Source: a virus
Taxonomy: Duplodnaviria; Heunggongvirae; Uroviricota; Caudoviricetes
Virus record (IMG/VR): IMGVR_UViG_2648501669_000017
Length of the DNA stretch: 26,325 nt
Strand: one strand, 5' to 3'
Part shown: in pieces, positions 4,101-23,300 of the stretch
How positions within the stretch are numbered: position 1 is the first letter of the stretch
Layout: the number at the start of each line of letters is the position of its first letter
Translations under genes and position numbers: made by a program
The notes under the pieces: generated by a model
Told to the model about the DNA's origin: nothing
What the model saw: only the letters and a program-made list of their open reading frames with translations
The model's database searches: none

Positions 4101-5722
4101 GCGCGACAGGAAGCCTGTCGTTAATGACGCCACGGGATAATGTTACGCCAGTTAAACTCGAAGGGGCGGTCCGGATTACCGATAGCGCGACATTGACTCT
4201 GGGAAATGGCGTCGATACCACGCTTGCCGACCTGACGGCTGCCAGCCGGGGCAGTGTCTGGCTTAACAGCAATAATTCCTGTGCAGGTACCAGCAACTGC
4301 GAATATAGAGTAAACAGTTTGCTACTCAACGACGGTGATGTTTATTTGTCAGCACAAACAGCAGCGCCTGCCACAACTAACGGTATCTACAATACGCTGA
4401 CAACCAATGAACTTTCCGGTAGCGGTAATTTCTACCTGCATACCAACGTTGCAGGCTCCCGGGGCGATCAACTGGTCGTCAACAACAACGCCACTGGTAA
4501 TTTTAAAATCTTTGTTCAGGATACCGGCGTCAGCCCACAGTCTGACGACGCGATGACGCTGGTGAAAACAGGGGGAGGGGATGCTTCGTTTACGCTGGGC
4601 AATACCGGCGGTTTCGTTGATCTTGGGACCTATGAGTATGTCCTGAAAAGTGACGGCAACAGCAACTGGAACCTGACCAATGATGTCAAACCCAACCCGG
4701 ACCCCATCCCAAATCCAAAGCCAGACCCAAAACCCGATCCAAAGCCAGACCCAAATCCAAAACCAGACCCTACTCCCGATCCAACGCCGACACCCGTTCC
4801 GGAGAAACGCATTACGCCTTCTACGGCAGCCGTACTCAATATGGCAGCAACATTACCGTTGGTATTTGATGCTGAGCTAAACAGTATTCGCGAGCGGTTG
4901 AACATAATGAAAGCGAGTCCACACAACAATAATGTCTGGGGGGCGACGTATAACACCCGTAATAATGTCACCACCGATGCGGGTGCCGGGTTTGAGCAGA
5001 CGCTGACCGGAATGACAGTGGGGATCGACAGCCGTAATGATATTCCTGAAGGAATTACCACGCTAGGCGCTTTTATGGGCTATTCCCATTCACATATCGG
5101 TTTTGATCGCGGAGGACATGGCAGTGTGGGCAGTTATTCTCTGGGCGGCTATGCCAGTTGGGAACATGAAAGTGGTTTCTATCTGGACGGTGTCGTGAAG
5201 CTGAACCGTTTTAAAAGTAACGTAGCAGGTAAAATGAGCAGCGGTGGAGCCGCCAATGGCAGTTACCACAGCAACGGGCTGGGCGGTCACATTGAAACCG
5301 GGATGCGATTTACCGATGGTAACTGGAACCTGACGCCGTATGCATCGTTAACGGGGTTCACCGCTGATAACCCCGAATATCATTTATCCAATGGCATGAA
5401 ATCGAAATCAGTCGATACCCGCAGTATATATCGTGAACTGGGCGCAACGCTGAGTTACAACATGCGTCTGGGGAACGGTATGGAAGTTGAGCCGTGGCTG
5501 AAGGCGGCTGTGCGCAAAGAATTTGTCGATGATAACCGGGTGAAAGTGAATAGTGACGGTAATTTCGTCAATTATTTGTCGGGCAGACGTGGAATATACC
5601 AGGCAGGTATTAAAGCCTCATTCAGCAGTACGTTAAGCGGGCATCTTGGGGTGGGGTATAGCCATAGTGCCGGTGTGGAATCCCCGTGGAACGCGGTAGC
5701 TGGTGTGAACTGGTCGTTCTGA
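1142..5722 (+). CDS. ypjA: Adhesin-like autotransporter (type Va): signal peptide, long repetitive beta-helical passenger domain, Pro-rich linker, C-terminal beta-barrel translocator
   Basis: ORF 1013-5722; ATG at 1142 sits 9 nt after AGAGGA and gives MNRTSPYYCRRSVLSLLISALIYAPPGMAAF (signal-peptide-like), total 1526 aa; iterative ~19-aa GG-x-Q/T-rich passenger repeats; PNPKPDPKPDP linker; C-terminal aromatic-rich barrel ending ...NWSF. Symbol assigned from length plus the adjacent invertase remnant and ssrA-att context, as recalled for E. coli K-12 ypjA. Confidence 0.8.
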   Translation: MNRTSPYYCRRSVLSLLISALIYAPPGMAAFTTNVIGVVNDETVDGNQKVDERGTTNNTHIINHGQQNVHGGVSNGSLIESGGYQDIGSHNNFVGQANNTTINGGRQSIHDGGISTGTTIESGNQDVYKGGISNGTTIKGGASRVEGGSANGILIDGGSQIVKVQGHADGTTINKSGSQDVVQGSLATNTTINGGRQYVEQSTVETTTIKNGGEQRVYESRALDTTIEGGTQSLNSKSTAKNTHIYSGGTQIVDNTSTSDVIEVYSGGVLDVSGGTATNVTQHDGAILKTNTNGTTVSGTNSEGAFSIHNHVADNVLLENGGHLDINAYGSANKTIIKDKGTMSVLTNAKADATRIDNGGVMDVAGNATNTIINGGTQNINNYGIATGTNINSGTQNIKSGGKADTTIISSGSRQVVEKDGTAIGSNISAGGSLIVYTGGIAHGVNQETGSALVANTGAGTDIEGYNKLSHFTITGGEANYVVLENTGELTVVAKTSAKNTTIDTGGKLIVQKEAKTDSTRLNNGGVLEVQDGGEAKHVEQQSGGALIASTTSGTLIEGTNSYGDAFYIRNSEAKNVVLENAGSLTVVTGSRAVDTIINANGKMDVYGKDVGTVLNSAGTQTIYASATSDKANIKGGKQTVYGLATEANIESGEQIVDGGSTEKTHINGGTQTVQNYGKAINTDIVSGLQQIMANGTAEGSIINGGSQVVNEGGLAENSVLNDGGTLDVREKGSATGIQQSSQGALVATTRATRVTGTRADGVAFSIEQGAANNILLANGGVLTVESDTSSDKTQVNMGGREIVKTKATATGTTLTGGEQIVEGVANETTINDGGIQTVSANGEAIKTKINEGGTLTVNDNGKATDIVQNSGAALQTSTANGIEISGTHQYGTFSISGNLATNMLLENGGNLLVLAGTEARDSTVGKGGAMQNLGQDSATKVNSGGQYTLGRSKDEFQALARAEDLQVAGGTAIVYAGTLADASVSGATGSLSLMTPRDNVTPVKLEGAVRITDSATLTLGNGVDTTLADLTAASRGSVWLNSNNSCAGTSNCEYRVNSLLLNDGDVYLSAQTAAPATTNGIYNTLTTNELSGSGNFYLHTNVAGSRGDQLVVNNNATGNFKIFVQDTGVSPQSDDAMTLVKTGGGDASFTLGNTGGFVDLGTYEYVLKSDGNSNWNLTNDVKPNPDPIPNPKPDPKPDPKPDPNPKPDPTPDPTPTPVPEKRITPSTAAVLNMAATLPLVFDAELNSIRERLNIMKASPHNNNVWGATYNTRNNVTTDAGAGFEQTLTGMTVGIDSRNDIPEGITTLGAFMGYSHSHIGFDRGGHGSVGSYSLGGYASWEHESGFYLDGVVKLNRFKSNVAGKMSSGGAANGSYHSNGLGGHIETGMRFTDGNWNLTPYASLTGFTADNPEYHLSNGMKSKSVDTRSIYRELGATLSYNMRLGNGMEVEPWLKAAVRKEFVDDNRVKVNSDGNFVNYLSGRRGIYQAGIKASFSSTLSGHLGVGYSHSAGVESPWNAVAGVNWSF
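4687..4800 (+). repeat. Proline-rich linker encoded by an imperfect tandem DNA repeat (CCAAAGCCAGACCCAAA-type units) inside the autotransporter gene
   Basis: Direct reading: ...cccaacccggaccccatcccaaatccaaagccagacccaaaacccgatccaaagccagacccaaatccaaaaccagaccc...; protein PNPDPIPNPKPDPKPDPKPDPNPKPDPTPDPTPTPVP. Confidence 0.8.
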
Positions 5723-12911: not shown

Positions 12912-13604
12912 TTAATTGTGTCGCTTAAGGGTTTGTGACTGGCTGATTAAGACCTTTCCAAAGACCATAAACCGGTGTTCATTTTCGCTGGTAATTCCCC
13001 ATTCACGGTAAATCTGGTTATCAGAAATCACCAGTAGTTTGTCAGGTATCATTTGCAGTCGTTTGACATAAATTTTATCATCAAAACCAAATACATAGAT
13101 ACCATCTCCATCAAACTGATTGATACTGACATCAACGAAGATGAGATCTCCTGGCTCAATGGTTGGACACATACTGTCCCCACGAACGTTGATAACTTTA
13201 ATGTGATTGGCTGGCCGTCCGCCAAACATCGATACAGCATTATCAGTTCTGTATTCAATGGCATGAATCACATCAATGACATCACCGCCCTGGATAAGGC
13301 CATTTCCCGCACTGGCACTGACATCCAGCATTTCAATACGGAATACATCCTTCACCTGCGCAACATCCTCACTAATACTGTTTTTACATACAGTATTACT
13401 TTTGACGTCTGAGGTAAAGAGATCAGCAATATCAACACCTAAGCTCCTGGCAATATTACTCAGGGCTTGTTCAGTGAATTGTTTCTGCTTACCTGTTTCC
13501 AGGCGTGAGATATTCGCCGCATCCACTCCTATTGCTTCAGCGAGATCGGCGATTTTCATGTTCTTCGCCTGGCGAAGTTGTCTGACTCGGTTTCCTATGT
13601 TCAT
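12912..13604 (-). CDS. cI: CI-type prophage repressor: N-terminal HTH (XRE family) + C-terminal S24 LexA-like autopeptidase domain
   Basis: 230 aa; HTH IADLAEAIGVDAANISRLETG; Ala-Gly at ...SASAGNG; Ser/Lys dyad motifs GDSM and YVKRL; divergent from cro; no Shine-Dalgarno before the ATG. Confidence 0.9.
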   Translation of the reverse strand: MNIGNRVRQLRQAKNMKIADLAEAIGVDAANISRLETGKQKQFTEQALSNIARSLGVDIADLFTSDVKSNTVCKNSISEDVAQVKDVFRIEMLDVSASAGNGLIQGGDVIDVIHAIEYRTDNAVSMFGGRPANHIKVINVRGDSMCPTIEPGDLIFVDVSINQFDGDGIYVFGFDDKIYVKRLQMIPDKLLVISDNQIYREWGITSENEHRFMVFGKVLISQSQTLKRHN

Positions 13605-15798: not shown

Positions 15799-16289
15799 GC
15801 ATGAGTCTTTTGAATGACGTTCAGAAATTCATTGAAGCCCATCCGGGGTGTACTTCCGGAGACATTGCGGATGCTTTTGCAGGTTACTCACGGCAGCGCG
15901 TTCTGCAGTCTGCAAGCAAGTTACGTCAGAGTGGGCGTGTGGCTCACCGTTGTGAAGGAGATACACGCAGACATTTCCCGCGCCTGACTGAGAGAGCGCA
16001 GGAGCCGGAACCACAACCAGTTCGTGAAACCAGACCTGTGCGCAATTTCTATGTCGGCACTAACGACCCGCGGGTGATTTTGTGCCTGACCCGCCAGGCG
16101 GAAGAACTGGAGTCCAGGGGCTTATACCGTCGTGCTGCAACGGTGTGGATGGCGGCATTCCGTGAAAGCCACTCCCAGCCAGAACGAAACAATTTTCTGG
16201 CGCGTCGTGAACGGTGTTTACGGAAAAGCAGTAAGCGGGCTGCATCAGGTGAAGAGTGGTATCTCTCAGGGAATTACGTGGGGGCTTAA
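15795..16289 (+). CDS. PerC-family-like transcriptional regulator with N-terminal winged-helix region
   Basis: 164 aa; start ATG overlaps the O-like stop; segment LESRGLYRRAATVWMAAF...ERNNFLARRERC resembles the conserved core of PerC/Pch activators as I recall them (QQGLWRRAARRW...C..RR.FC). Confidence 0.5.
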   Translation: MSMSLLNDVQKFIEAHPGCTSGDIADAFAGYSRQRVLQSASKLRQSGRVAHRCEGDTRRHFPRLTERAQEPEPQPVRETRPVRNFYVGTNDPRVILCLTRQAEELESRGLYRRAATVWMAAFRESHSQPERNNFLARRERCLRKSSKRAASGEEWYLSGNYVGA

Positions 16290-16942
16290 TGAGTAATAAA
16301 TATTGCCAGGCGCTGGCGGAACTGCGGAACAAACCAGCCCATGAACTGAAGGAAGTGGGCGATCAGTGGCGCACGCCGGACAACATTTTCTGGGGAATTA
16401 ACACTCTGTTTGGCCCGTTTGTTCTGGATCTGTTTACTGACGGTGATAACGCCAAATGTGCTGCGTATTACACGGCGGAAGACAACGCGCTGGCGCATGA
16501 CTGGTCAGAACGCCTTGCGGAGCTTAAAGGTGCTGCCTTTGGTAATCCCCCATACAGCCGCGCCAGTCAGCATGAGGGGCAATACATCACCGGCATGCGT
16601 TACATCATGAAGCATGCCAGTGCCATGCGTGATAAAGGCGGGCGCTATGTTTTCCTGATCAAAGCTGCCACCAGCGAAGTGTGGTGGCCGGAAGATGCAG
16701 ATCATATTGCTTTTATTCGCGGGCGTATTGGTTTTGAACTGCCTGCCTGGTTTATCCCGAAGGATGAGAAGCAGGTGCCGACAGGCGCTTTCTTCGCTGG
16801 TGCTATTGCTGTTTTCGACAAGACCTGGAAGGGACCGGCAATCAGCTACATCGGGCGCTATGAACTTGAGGCATGTGGTGAGGCCTTTCTGGCGCAGGTT
16901 CGCCAGCAGGCAGAAAAACTGGTCAGGGAGATGGCGGCATGA
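16289..16942 (+). CDS. Phage Dam-family N6-adenine DNA methyltransferase (YfdM-type)
   Basis: Start ATG 16289 overlaps the upstream TAA (TAATG); catalytic motif FGNPPYS; conserved WRTPD and DLFTDG segments typical of the phage N-6-adenine-methyltransferase family. Confidence 0.8.
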   Translation: MSNKYCQALAELRNKPAHELKEVGDQWRTPDNIFWGINTLFGPFVLDLFTDGDNAKCAAYYTAEDNALAHDWSERLAELKGAAFGNPPYSRASQHEGQYITGMRYIMKHASAMRDKGGRYVFLIKAATSEVWWPEDADHIAFIRGRIGFELPAWFIPKDEKQVPTGAFFAGAIAVFDKTWKGPAISYIGRYELEACGEAFLAQVRQQAEKLVREMAA

Positions 16943-17265
16943 CGACGTTAACTCAATGCCAGCAGCAGGTGCTGGATATGCTGATTTCTTATCAGAAAGA
17001 ACGTGGCTTCCCGCCAACCAATCAGGAGGTGGCAACCATGCTGGGATACCGTTCAGTGAATGCAGCGGTGGAGCATCTTCGCGCACTGGAGAAAAAAGGC
17101 GTCATCACGATAAAGCGTGGCGTGGCCCGGGGCATCACGCTTCATACCGCGGTGAAGGACGACGACAGCGAGGCGGTCGGGATTATCCGCTCACTGCTTG
17201 CCGGTGAGGAAAACGCAAGGCTGCGTGCAGCCCACTGGTTACATGAGAGGGGCCTGAAAGTATGA
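16939..17265 (+). CDS. LexA N-terminal DNA-binding-domain-like protein (winged helix), lacking a peptidase domain
   Basis: 108 aa; QQQVLDMLISYQKERGFPPTNQEVATMLGYRSVNAAVEHLRALEKKGVI parallels the LexA N-terminus ([50 protein letters not shown]); ATGA overlap with the upstream gene. Confidence 0.7.
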   Translation: MTTLTQCQQQVLDMLISYQKERGFPPTNQEVATMLGYRSVNAAVEHLRALEKKGVITIKRGVARGITLHTAVKDDDSEAVGIIRSLLAGEENARLRAAHWLHERGLKV

Positions 17266-17652
17266 AGCTGATCCTGCCTTTTCCGCCCAGCGTGAACACG
17301 TACTGGCGACACCCCAACAAAGGGGCGTTTGCTGGTAAGAGCCTGATAAGCGCGGCTGGGCGAAAATTCCAGAGCGCGGCGTGCGCAGCAATAGTTGAGC
17401 AGTTACGTCGTCTGCCGAAACCAACGTCGGCACCTGCTTCAGTGGAGATCGTGTTGTTTCCTCCGGATAACAGGATCCGCGATCTGGACAACTATAACAA
17501 GGCGCTGTTTGACGCCCTGACCCACGCGGGGGGTGTGGGAAGACGACAGTCAGGTGAAAAGAATGCTGGTGGAGTGGGGACCGGTTATCCCGGAAGGGAA
17601 GGTCGAGATCACTATCAGTAAGTACGAGAAAACGGCGGGTGCAGCTGCCTGA
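17262..17652 (+). pseudogene. rusA: rusA Holliday-junction resolvase with a +1 frameshift in a G6 homopolymer (intact frame would end at 17652)
   Basis: N-terminal 90 aa are RusA-like (...RIRDLDNYNKALFDALTHAG); after the GGGGGG run at 17528-17533 the annotated frame gives nonsense (GVGRRQSGEKNAGGVGTGYPGREGRDHYQ), while the +1 frame gives RusA-like ...VWEDDSQVKRMLVEWGPVIPEGKVEITISKYE. Confidence 0.75.
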
Positions 17653-20039: not shown

Positions 20040-21491
20040 TTATTTTATTTTGCTTACTATATTTGTAATAAGTGGGTCAAATTTCTCATCAATAATTTCA
20101 ATATATTTTTTTATTGCTAAAGTTCTAATTACTTCCTCCTCACATTCTGCTTCTTTAGCAATTGCTTGAGTGTAATTGTGATGATCACTAATCCCTTCCT
20201 TTTTTATTAACCAATCAAAATCAATATGATACTCCTTGTAGAGGAATTTTTTTACTTCCTCATGTTGAAATACTTCTACTTCTGGTGGCCTATTGCCAGG
20301 GAAAGAAAATAAATCATCTTTAATGTTTTCTCCAACATCTGCATCTCTTACGGCAATAACATTAAGGCCTGCTTTCTTGAATACCTCGACTGCTTGTCGG
20401 ACTGCATCTTTATCTCCAATATCAGTGATTTGAATGGATTTAAGAATGTCTCTCCGCTTTGCTCTAATTACTTCACTAAGTAAAACTTTTGCAAACTGGT
20501 CTTCTACGCAAATATGCAGCCCTTTAAACTGCCCATCAGACAGTATTGATCTCACATGAGTTGTTGAAATTCCATCTTTGATATAGACACCAGTCTGATC
20601 TCTAATAAGTAATTTTCGTGCATCAGGAGGTAAAGCATTTAATATCACACTTGAGTGTGTTGATAATATTATTTGATGTTTTCTACGTTGACATACTTCC
20701 ATTAAATATTTTGCAAATTCATACTGTGCGCTTTCATGAAGAGATGTTTCTGGTTCTTCTAGTACGAAAAGACTTTGCTCTGGAGCTGTTTCAAGCATAT
20801 CAACCGTATAAAGAACTCTTCCTTCGCCAAACCCCATGTTATTTTCAGAATAAGAATACCCAAGTCTTTCAACAATACCAATTTCTGAACGACGTGCTCT
20901 ATGAGAAATTCCTTGGAATGCGATATCATCATATGGATGACCTATTATTTTTGCCATCTTCAATATTACTGAATGGTCGACGCTTCTTCTCTCTGTTAAA
21001 TCAAAGTCTTTACCGCCATAAACACTTATATCTCTACGTTCTACTTTTGGAATATAGACAGTAAAACCAATGTAAAAACAGTGTCTTTCTGGTTGTCTTT
21101 TATATCCAGACCAAGAAGACTTTATGCGAGTGACAGTCACATCTTGTGTTTTCGTTGAATCATTTGTTTCATATTTATAAATGACACTGGCGTCATTATC
21201 GAAAGGGGCTGGATCGGCTTTAGATACAGGGAAAAAATCTTTAATATATAATCTCTTATATTCACGGGCTGTAACTGGTTTTTTATATGCGCATATTGCT
21301 AACTGCCCAAGAGTGCTTTTCCCAGCGCCGTTTAGCCCTGATATTGCAGTTACCGGAAAATTTATATTTAATGTTAGTTTTTTTATTCCTCGAAATCCAT
21401 TTATCTCTAGACTTTTAATTACGGAGCCAAAGTTTGAGTATCTATTTTTATCAAAGTACATGCATTTTAGTATATTTTTTATGTCTGACAT
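20040..21491 (-). CDS. OLD-family-like ATPase-nuclease: N-terminal ABC-type ATPase + C-terminal TOPRIM-like domain (candidate anti-phage defence protein)
   Basis: 483 aa; ATG 21491 with AGGAAAG 8 nt upstream; Walker A GLNGAGKST (aa 52-60), signature-like SENNMGFGEG (aa 214-223), Walker B LFVLEEPE (aa 241-248), H-loop LSTHS (aa 276-280); TOPRIM-like acidic motifs HICVEDQ (E330) and IAVRDADVGEN (D383/D385); visibly AT-rich; transcribed against the late operon. Confidence 0.75.
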   Translation of the reverse strand: MSDIKNILKCMYFDKNRYSNFGSVIKSLEINGFRGIKKLTLNINFPVTAISGLNGAGKSTLGQLAICAYKKPVTAREYKRLYIKDFFPVSKADPAPFDNDASVIYKYETNDSTKTQDVTVTRIKSSWSGYKRQPERHCFYIGFTVYIPKVERRDISVYGGKDFDLTERRSVDHSVILKMAKIIGHPYDDIAFQGISHRARRSEIGIVERLGYSYSENNMGFGEGRVLYTVDMLETAPEQSLFVLEEPETSLHESAQYEFAKYLMEVCQRRKHQIILSTHSSVILNALPPDARKLLIRDQTGVYIKDGISTTHVRSILSDGQFKGLHICVEDQFAKVLLSEVIRAKRRDILKSIQITDIGDKDAVRQAVEVFKKAGLNVIAVRDADVGENIKDDLFSFPGNRPPEVEVFQHEEVKKFLYKEYHIDFDWLIKKEGISDHHNYTQAIAKEAECEEEVIRTLAIKKYIEIIDEKFDPLITNIVSKIK

Positions 21492-22247: not shown

Positions 22248-23300
22248 ATGAAAAATACTGTAAAAATAAACAGTGTTGATTTAATCAACGCTGATTGCCT
22301 GCATTTTATTCAGTCCCTGCCTGATGATTCCATTGACCTGATTGTTACCGATCCGCCTTACTTCAAGGTGAAACCCAACGGTTGGGACAATCAGTGGAAA
22401 GGGGACGAAGATTACCTTAAGTGGCTGGACCACTGTCTGGCCCAGTTCTGGCGGGTGTTGAAACCTGCCGGAAGCCTTTACCTGTTCTGTGGGCATCGCC
22501 TGGCATCTGATATTGAGATCATGATGCGTGAACGTTTCAACGTGCTTAACCATATCATCTGGGCGAAGCCGTCCGGACGTTGGAATGGGTGTAATAAAGA
22601 AAGTCTGCGCGCATATTTTCCTGCCACAGAGCGCGTTCTGTTTGCTGAACATTACCAGGGGCCATATCGCGGCAAAAGTGACGACTATGCGGCAAAAGAA
22701 AGGGAACTCAAACAGCACATAATGGCACCGCTGATATCGTATTTCAGGGATGCTCGTGCCGAACTGGGTATAACGGCAAAACAAATTGCCGAAGCCACAG
22801 ATAAGAAAAATATGGTTTCCCACTGGTTTGGTGCCAGTCAGTGGCAGTTGCCGAATGAGGCTGACTATCGGAAGTTACAGGCACTGTTTTCCCGTATAGC
22901 GGCAGAGAAGTTTCAGGAACAACAACTGGAACAACCACACCACCAGCTGGTGGCATCTTATGATTCACTGAATCGCAAATATTCTGAATTGCTGGATGAG
23001 TTTAAATCTCTCCGGCGCTATTTCTCCGTATCAGTCTCTGTGCCTTATACCGATGTCTGGACGCATAAGCCCGTTCAGTTCTACCCGGGTAAACATCCGT
23101 GCGAGAAACCGGCGGATATGCTCCGGCAAATAATCAATGCCAGTAGTCGACCTGGTGATCTGGTTGCTGATTTCTTTATGGGATCCGGTTCCACAATAAA
23201 AGCAGCAATGGCGCTGGGGCGTCGGGCGTTAGGTGTTGAACTTGAGTCAGAGCGGTTTAATCAGACGGTGAAAGAGGTAAGTGAACTGGTGGGGAAATAA
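22248..23300 (+). CDS. Orphan DNA methyltransferase, beta-class (motif IV DPPY N-terminal, motif I FxGxG C-terminal); N6-adenine or N4-cytosine specific
   Basis: 350 aa; IVTDPPYF (aa 32-39) and ADFFMGSGST (aa ~308-317); central insertion with an HTH-like segment (ITAKQIAEATD); no adjacent restriction endonuclease recognisable. Confidence 0.85.
   Translation: MKNTVKINSVDLINADCLHFIQSLPDDSIDLIVTDPPYFKVKPNGWDNQWKGDEDYLKWLDHCLAQFWRVLKPAGSLYLFCGHRLASDIEIMMRERFNVLNHIIWAKPSGRWNGCNKESLRAYFPATERVLFAEHYQGPYRGKSDDYAAKERELKQHIMAPLISYFRDARAELGITAKQIAEATDKKNMVSHWFGASQWQLPNEADYRKLQALFSRIAAEKFQEQQLEQPHHQLVASYDSLNRKYSELLDEFKSLRRYFSVSVSVPYTDVWTHKPVQFYPGKHPCEKPADMLRQIINASSRPGDLVADFFMGSGSTIKAAMALGRRALGVELESERFNQTVKEVSELVGK

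Follow-up and report, generated by a model that had tools for sequence, protein, structure and literature searches.

The described systems closest to the gene considered here include LexA of Escherichia coli and gp6 of the Betatectivirus GIL01. LexA dimerises via its C-terminal domain, and its isolated N-terminal fragment still shows specific, if weak, operator binding and dimerises on DNA. LexA(Ind-) alleles lock the SOS regulon off, and the LexA(1-84) fragment is degraded by ClpXP via its new C-terminus. The N-terminal domains of operator-bound LexA also contact each other (PMC3159453). The GIL01 protein gp6 is a truncated phage homologue of LexA whose binding site is GaCACAnnTGTGaC; it activates the late promoter P3, and Lys38 in its recognition helix is essential (PMC6182141). 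In this study, we analyzed a LexA-like gene in a 26,325-nucleotide stretch of DNA (IMG/VR record IMGVR_UViG_2648501669_000017; hereafter the window), which is an E. coli lambdoid prophage of the SfV/CPS-53 type adjoining ypjA. A preliminary description of the window had read the 108-residue product as a LexA DNA-binding domain without the autopeptidase domain, and our analysis confirmed this reading. The protein additionally carries a C-terminal helical hairpin that is not present in LexA.

Pfam LexA_DNA_bind (PF01726) covered residues 1-65 over its whole length (profile positions 1-65 of 65; E=2.9e-19) with a score of 69 bits against a gathering cut-off of 23.7 bits, and the second-best winged-helix family in the same scan of the protein, HTH_Crp_2, scored below its own threshold. 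The profile search that had been suggested as a check therefore assigned the protein to the LexA_DNA_bind family and not to another winged helix-turn-helix family. In a phmmer search against the Protein Data Bank (PDB), residues 2-69 of E. coli LexA (PDB 1lea) aligned with residues 2-69 of the LexA-like protein without gaps (E=7e-16). An AlphaFold2 model, built from an 18-sequence family alignment, had a mean predicted local distance difference test score (pLDDT) of 85.8; its winged-helix domain is composed of helices at residues 6-22, 28-35, and 40-52 and strands at residues 56-58 and 66-68, with pLDDT values of approximately 90. Foldseek superposed this model on DNA-bound LexA (3jso_B) with a root-mean-square deviation of 1.0 Å over 68 columns, 50% identity, and an E value of 1.2e-6, and the superposition showed the three-helix and β-hairpin wing fold of the LexA N-terminal domain. 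Pfam gave no match to Peptidase_S24 in the protein, which ends at residue 108, and the TIGR00498 lexA equivalog matched it over 1-91 of 203 only, with 70.8 bits, which is below the cut-off of 110.95. The profile phrog_362, labeled "transcriptional repressor", matched the full length of the protein including the tail (residues 1-108 against profile positions 1-106 of 106; E=1.4e-59). PADLOC did not recognize the protein as a known defence component. Because the S24 domain is absent, the cleavage site is not conserved (see below), and the equivalog score is subthreshold, the protein is classified by sequence as a member of PF01726 and phrog_362 and not as a LexA repressor in the strict sense.

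The preliminary description also stated that the protein parallels the LexA N-terminal domain almost position by position and then stops. The parallel holds for residues 2-69, which align gap-free, but the chain continues beyond the domain: residues 69-108 form a linker and a two-helix hairpin, as judged from the AlphaFold2 model and the alignments. The linker (residues 71-75) was modelled as disordered, with pLDDT below 50, and the hairpin consists of helices at residues 75-88 and 93-102 joined by the turn GEEN, with pLDDT of approximately 90. When 1.84 billion representatives were searched exhaustively with HMMER, full-length relatives of 105 to 135 residues with 39-52% identity were recovered (P0125, P0126, P0129, P0131, P0137, P0159, P0172, P0207, and P0220). 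All of these relatives share the hairpin pattern hydrophobic-hydrophobic-R/K/Q-x-L/M-L/V, turn, A-R-x-x-A-x-x-W/F/L-L, in which A97 and L101 are invariant down to this level of identity. The ratio of nonsynonymous to synonymous substitution rates (dN/dS), calculated for 73 unique alleles of the sister clade, was 0.20 in the winged helix and between 0.16 and 0.20 in the tail, and since it is low in both parts alike, both are kept by purifying selection. The conserved hairpin and its dN/dS of approximately 0.16-0.20 indicate that these proteins constitute a distinct two-domain family and are not truncated LexA. The tail alone matched no Pfam family. Because the hairpin has a conserved hydrophobic face, it is most plausibly a dimerisation module that would replace the C-terminal domain of LexA, perhaps by pairing into a four-helix bundle.

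HMMER extended the LexA alignment into the cleavage region, where LLAGE (A88-G89 in the LexA-like protein) is placed opposite VAAGE of LexA; apart from this "AGE", the tail has no similarity to LexA. This extension carries no meaning. We considered A88-G89 as a retained LexA cleavage site that would turn the protein into a trans-cleavage substrate and rejected this: the relatives have AN, VG, TR, SG, ER, or DD at the corresponding position, and in the model the pair lies at a helix end or turn. As a separate observation, pairs of tandem LexA_DNA_bind stretches without a peptidase domain were found in P0132, P0133, P0148, P0152, P0153, P0156, and P0160 of the representative library.

The helix-3 residues by which LexA contacts DNA are Ser39, Asn41, Ala42, Glu44, and Glu45 (PMC3091678). 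The window protein, whose recognition helix lies within RSVNAAVEHLRAL, retains S39, N41, A42, and E45 and has Val at position 44; the wing residues R64-G65-I66 of LexA are also retained. Of the 17 protein clusters of the family, all have S39 and N41, 15 have A42, and 12 have E45, which is replaced by Asp in 2 others. Since four of the five LexA contact residues are kept, it is plausible that the LexA-like protein binds the CTGT-type half-sites of SOS boxes. The recognition helix RSVNAAVEHLRAL is also far nearer to that of LexA than to that of gp6 (SHKTAHRYLMQL).

We tentatively propose, with slightly less than even confidence, that the protein is a RecA-insensitive, hairpin-dimerised binder of the LexA type that keeps SOS-type boxes repressed while host LexA is cleaved. 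It would combine a LexA-type winged helix bearing most of the base-contacting residues, a short flexible linker, and the two-helix hairpin as the dimerisation element. Because the S24 peptidase domain and a conserved Ala-Gly site are both missing, the protein cannot cleave itself as LexA does, and activated RecA cannot remove it by that route. The rightward early operon would express its gene, coupled in translation to rusA, along with the delayed-early (nin-like) genes, and the protein would appear in lytic growth or after induction. It would then occupy LexA-type operators of the predicted sequence and spacing, CTGT-N8-ACAG, on the host chromosome and the prophage, acting presumably by repression rather than activation, and repression at SOS boxes would be kept or restored while host LexA is destroyed, to the presumed benefit of the phage.

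The likeness to E. coli LexA thus lies in the fold (1.0 Å), the 50% gap-free identity over residues 2-69, the contacts S39, N41, A42, and E45, and the wing. By contrast, the phage protein lacks the S24 peptidase and dimerisation domain (with the LexA dyad Ser119/Lys156) and a conserved Ala84-Gly85, has E44 replaced, and carries a two-helix hairpin found only in this phage family; its gene is located in an early-lytic operon and not behind its own SOS boxes. By analogy, LexA(1-84) and LexA(Ind-) may serve as the nearest functional models, that is, as DNA-binding units that activated RecA cannot remove. The natural LexA(1-84) fragment has no dimerisation module, whereas the phage protein has the conserved tail and a different C-terminus (…GLKV). 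Like the window protein, gp6 is a phage-encoded LexA DNA-binding domain without the peptidase, belongs to the same Pfam family (PF01726, E=7.9e-14), and is expressed from an early operon, in a phage whose life cycle is connected with the SOS response. The differences are that gp6 has 66 residues and no C-terminal hairpin, that it belongs to a Gram-positive tectivirus and not to an enterobacterial lambdoid phage, and that its recognition helix SHKTAHRYLMQL has diverged from RSVNAAVEHLRAL; BLASTP gave no alignment between the two proteins at E<=100. We found no candidate site in the window for late-promoter activation of the gp6 type, and the late genes of the window prophage have the Q antiterminator. 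The coordinates of the features are summarized in Table 1.

Table 1. Coordinates of the LexA-like gene, its domains, and the neighbouring features in the window
Feature	Position	Strand	Evidence and remarks
cI repressor	12912-13604	minus	Helix-turn-helix and S24-like C-terminal domain
SOS box TACTGTTTTTACATACAGTA	13376-13395	not assigned (.)	Position weight matrix score 25.8, in the top range of E. coli boxes; inside cI, codons 70-76; possible cis target
Phage Dam-type N6-adenine methyltransferase	16289..16942	+	Pfam Dam E=5e-45, TIGR01712 E=9.7e-76; coordinates transferred from L001 (PGAP)
LexA-like coding sequence	16939..17265	+	ATG start, stop codon included, 108 residues; open reading frame list
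LexA-type winged helix-turn-helix domain, residues 1-68	16939..17142	+	AlphaFold2 model, Foldseek, alignment to LexA
Recognition helix, residues 40-52, within RSVNAAVEHLRAL	17056..17094	+	Alignments to LexA
Family-specific helical hairpin, residues 75-102, putative dimerisation module	17161..17244	+	AlphaFold2 model, conservation, dN/dS
rusA, Holliday-junction resolvase	17262..17652	+	Pfam RusA E=1.4e-6, phrog_34 E=1.8e-39
483-residue ATPase	20040-21491	minus	PADLOC candidate family HEC-04, E=5e-47
Type II-like N6/N4 DNA methyltransferase	22248-23300		Downstream of Q
SOS box TACTGTAAAAATAAACAGTG	22256-22275	not assigned (.)	Position weight matrix score 22.5; codons 3-9 of the Type II DNA methyltransferase; possible cis target

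The prophage genes run, in order, from the integrase and the yfdT-yfdP block through cI on the minus strand, cro, and ymfL to genes for an O-like replication protein and a PerC-like activator. Next come Dam, the LexA-like gene, rusA, and genes for a KilA-N protein, DUF968, and Q; beyond Q lie a gene for a defence-like ATPase, encoded on the opposite strand, and then those for a DNA methyltransferase and for lysis. The longest open reading frame of the Dam gene begins at 16256. In the sequence, the Dam stop and the LexA-like start overlap by 4 bp (ATGA, 16939-16942), as do the LexA-like stop and the rusA start (17262-17265), and a GGAG-type ribosome-binding site is located approximately 9 nt 5' of both the LexA-like and the rusA start. 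No sigma-70-like promoter was found on the plus strand between cro and the LexA-like gene; because of this, the LexA-like gene is most simply placed as a delayed-early gene of the rightward operon, which would be made in lytic growth.

In six divergent relatives (39-52% identity), the LexA-like gene is followed by rusA, an optional Ant-like or KilA-N gene, DUF968, and Q. The 4-bp overlap with rusA is usual among these six, and the upstream gene varies, being Dam, a C5-type methylase, or a replication protein; RusA and DUF968 co-occur in six of six independent contexts. The preliminary description had the gene translationally coupled to both Dam and rusA. The overlaps with both are present in the window, but only the coupling to rusA is a feature of the family, whereas that to Dam is not. 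In Salmonella phage ST64B, which has the same module but no LexA-like gene, Dam leads straight into rusA, and in 19 loci phrog_1813 and phrog_1212 are followed by rusA, again with the LexA-like gene absent. Because ST64B and these 19 loci have the module without it, the LexA-like gene is an accessory insert at a fixed slot directly 5' of rusA.

Some further observations concern the neighbouring genes. The rusA of the window has one extra T at approximately 17534, after a G run, compared with the intact 129-residue copy in E. coli F5505-C1 (L001). The frameshifted product has 119 residues and an aberrant C-terminus; the gene is either a pseudogene with a genuine frameshift or has been affected by a sequencing error in the homopolymer. 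The adjacent Dam is often labeled "phosphoadenosine phosphosulfate reductase" in RefSeq phage entries. The gene for the 483-residue ATPase is located between Q and the genes for the methyltransferase and lysis and is oriented against its surroundings. The ATPase matches AriA/GajA-type ATPases more weakly than HEC-04; judged from its sequence, it is probably a prophage-borne anti-phage defence moron.

SOS boxes were scored with a position weight matrix built from E. coli boxes of the literature and used as a scoring device only. Exactly two sites in the window scored >=12, TACTGTTTTTACATACAGTA and TACTGTAAAAATAAACAGTG, and exact CTGT-N8-ACAG occurred twice against 0.28 expected. Neither an enriched CTGT-Nk-ACAG palindrome at spacings other than 8 nor any other candidate operator was found in the whole window. 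The near-consensus box TACTGTTTTTACATACAGTA falls in the interdomain linker of cI, between the helix-turn-helix and S24-like domains. Nine diverged cI alleles hold a box at the same codons although the flanking linker residues vary, which suggests that selection acts on the DNA site. Candidate roles for a LexA operator inside cI are a roadblock and an internal or antisense promoter; we found no paper on such an operator. Of the E. coli and Shigella members of the phage collection, every one that has this cI allele (10 of 10) also carries the LexA-like gene. The second box, TACTGTAAAAATAAACAGTG, is found in nearly identical form at the methyltransferase gene of many unrelated loci, whether or not they carry the LexA-like gene, which suggests that the methyltransferase is an SOS-controlled moron.

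For a survey of SOS boxes and gene context, 130 loci with tail-bearing homologues were collected. A strong box was located 0.4 to 1.5 kb upstream of the LexA-like gene in 28 of 30 loci representing five protein clusters (P0137 and P0207 type). In L006 and L009, this box sits in a promoter after a terminator, and the genes behind the promoter are a DinI-like gene (Pfam E=1e-23), phrog_1813, the LexA-like gene, phrog_1212, and rusA. At some such loci, a phage RecA gene (E=2.7e-135) and a short UmuD'-like open reading frame are also present, each behind its own SOS box. Since the cI of L006 has no S24 domain, phrog_1813 may be a LexA-controlled antirepressor. If the LexA-like protein binds SOS boxes, the nearby boxes would be its natural targets. 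This SOS-themed neighbourhood, with its dinI/RecA module and the two strong boxes of the window, is suggestive support for such binding, which the controls described below weaken.

Two observations on this region stand apart from the function of the LexA-like protein. A recurrent SOS module was seen in the nin-like region of lambdoid phages (L006, L009, L097-L123, and L147-L165; for example, L119 8837-10530 and L148 3686-4955); it is composed of the box-bearing promoter, the DinI-like gene, phrog_1813 (75-100 residues), an optional LexA-like gene, phrog_1212 (67 residues), rusA, DUF968, and Q. A short conserved intergenic sequence, which gives HSRHRPEQPIPAA in an alternative-frame reading, is present in L006 (5960-6000), L009 (5955-6000), L102 (approximately 2040-2120), and L157 (approximately 4185-4260). 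It precedes whichever gene fills the slot after phrog_1813, either the LexA-like gene or phrog_1212, and looks like a module boundary where the LexA-like gene swaps in or out.

Several points weigh against the binding of SOS boxes by the LexA-like protein. The only phage LexA-domain protein to have been characterized, gp6, recognizes another palindrome and acts as an activator of transcription (PMC6182141). None of the 17 clusters has Glu at position 44, and because this LexA contact is never retained, affinity or specificity may differ from those of LexA. P0207, P0172, and P0088 lose E45 as well, and a different dimerisation module may set a different half-site spacing. The boxes themselves occur independently of the gene. 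ST64B holds the cI-internal box and no LexA-like gene, and physical linkage suffices for the co-occurrence in the other phages; we therefore rejected the cI-internal box as a dedicated target. The methyltransferase box recurs both with the LexA-like gene (L009, L098-L100, and L125) and without it (L148, L150, L151, and L153). The module of SOS box, dinI, and phrog_1813 is unchanged in the 19 loci without the LexA-like gene, and autoregulation via the upstream box was likewise rejected as circumstantial, the box belonging to that module. In the P0131 clade, 80 loci are mostly without an SOS box within approximately 10 kb. Literature searches found no functional study of the enterobacterial family, which appeared in annotation tables only. 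The nearby boxes are best read as operators of host LexA and do not demonstrate binding by the LexA-like protein.

The absence of a canonical box near most phages of the P0131 clade, together with the constant replacement of E44 and the change of E45 or A42 in a few members, would also fit a private phage transcription factor with its own retuned operator and no direct action on host SOS. Such a factor could, for example, time rusA, the ant-like gene, DUF968, and Q, or the late genes; gp6, with its site GaCACAnnTGTGaC and its late promoter, is the precedent (PMC6182141), and the fixed position of the LexA-like gene just upstream of rusA, DUF968, and Q agrees with it. We regard this main alternative as possible though somewhat doubtful, in that RSVNAAVEHLRAL is much nearer to the helix of LexA than to SHKTAHRYLMQL, the window has neither an enrichment of CTGT-Nk-ACAG at other spacings nor an alternative operator, and a gene that is optional in otherwise identical modules (ST64B; L147-L165) is a poor fit for a core timing regulator. 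The same fixed position, with the usual 4-bp overlap kept in relatives of 39-52% identity despite a changing upstream neighbour and with RusA and DUF968 in all six independent contexts, could instead point to a DNA-binding accessory of RusA or of the DUF968 HNH-like nuclease that targets or modulates junction resolution and does not act in transcription. However, there are intact modules that lack the LexA-like gene and in which RusA directly follows Dam or phrog_1212, and in clade A a 67-residue gene sits between the LexA-like gene and rusA. The domain is a sequence-reading winged helix-turn-helix with conserved base-contact residues, and the shared ancestry of the mosaic nin module can account for the adjacency, so that we consider a role in recombination very unlikely.

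The preliminary description had further offered heterodimerisation with host LexA. This is unlikely, as the dimer interface of LexA lies in the C-terminal domain that the LexA-like protein lacks. More generally, an antagonist of host LexA could weaken repression by half-site capture, mixed complexes, or heterodimers and thereby promote SOS and induction, and mixed occupancy of a box is conceivable given that LexA N-terminal domains touch on the operator (PMC3159453). Nevertheless, the tail offers no LexA similarity beyond the non-conserved "AGE", a DNA-binding domain bound over a promoter would still repress, and by the time the protein would be made, after induction, cleavage of LexA is already under way; this role appears even less probable than one in recombination. 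Least credible of all, with only a very slim chance, is a decaying, functionless remnant of a full-length phage or host lexA. The protein is shorter than LexA, the HMMER alignment reaches the LexA cleavage region (LLAGE versus VAAGE), and several database copies are truncated or frameshifted. The selection analysis (dN/dS of approximately 0.2 in both domains) and the length and architecture conserved across clades of 39-52% identity nonetheless disfavour decay, as do the confidently structured hairpin of the tail, in which Ala-Gly is not conserved, and the carriage of the gene at 95-100% identity by 2233 genomes.

These 2233 genomes were identified by megablast among 5426 complete E. coli genomes (41%), with up to four copies per genome (<=4). 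The gene was also present in 50 phage records, including SfV (orf42), SfII, SfIV, mEp460, the cdtI phage, Stx2a, Stx2c, and Stx2k phages, 1720a-02, Ayreon, and Kati, and a scan of genome contigs gave only 7 loci. PGAP labels the 100% identical copies as "LexA family transcriptional regulator" (WP_000210164.1). The entries under phrog_362 and WP_000210164.1 (SfV orf42, SfII, SfIV, mEp460, cdtI, and Stx2a/2c) are the family itself, with 95-100% identity and the same order of Dam, the LexA-like gene, and rusA; they differ in nothing and provide annotation only. Some public records mislabel the 108-residue protein as "SOS-response repressor and protease LexA" or "RecA-mediated autopeptidases". The gene also appears in the annotation tables of comparative papers on Stx phages (PMC8136144, PMC8044961). 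The family is thus already catalogued, very common, and apparently uncharacterized. New in this study are the hairpin domain under selection, the slot upstream of rusA, the status of the gene as an optional insert, the pattern of the recognition helix in which E44 is lost and the other contacts are kept, and the negative controls for the SOS boxes.

If the LexA-like protein binds SOS boxes, a common prophage gene, carried by Shiga-toxin phages, cytolethal-distending-toxin phages, and Shigella serotype-converting phages, would reprogram how the host responds to DNA damage at induction, with a bearing on toxin release, antibiotic-triggered induction, mutagenesis, and the competition between co-resident prophages. 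In a stronger and unlikely form of this proposal, the lytic-phase protein would act as an "SOS lock" that re-silences every LexA operator and so serves the competition between mobile elements. Approximately 40% of complete E. coli genomes would then carry a LexA surrogate that RecA cannot inactivate, in which the helical hairpin would take over the dimerising role of the LexA peptidase domain. Host SOS functions would be turned off and, above all, LexA-controlled rivals would be silenced, namely, antirepressor-dependent prophages, colicin and lysis operons, and SOS-induced toxins. If the protein has its own operator instead, the family would be the second independent case, after GIL01 gp6, of a LexA fold recruited as a private phage regulator. 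Under either reading, the existing labels "LexA repressor" and "autopeptidase" are misleading.

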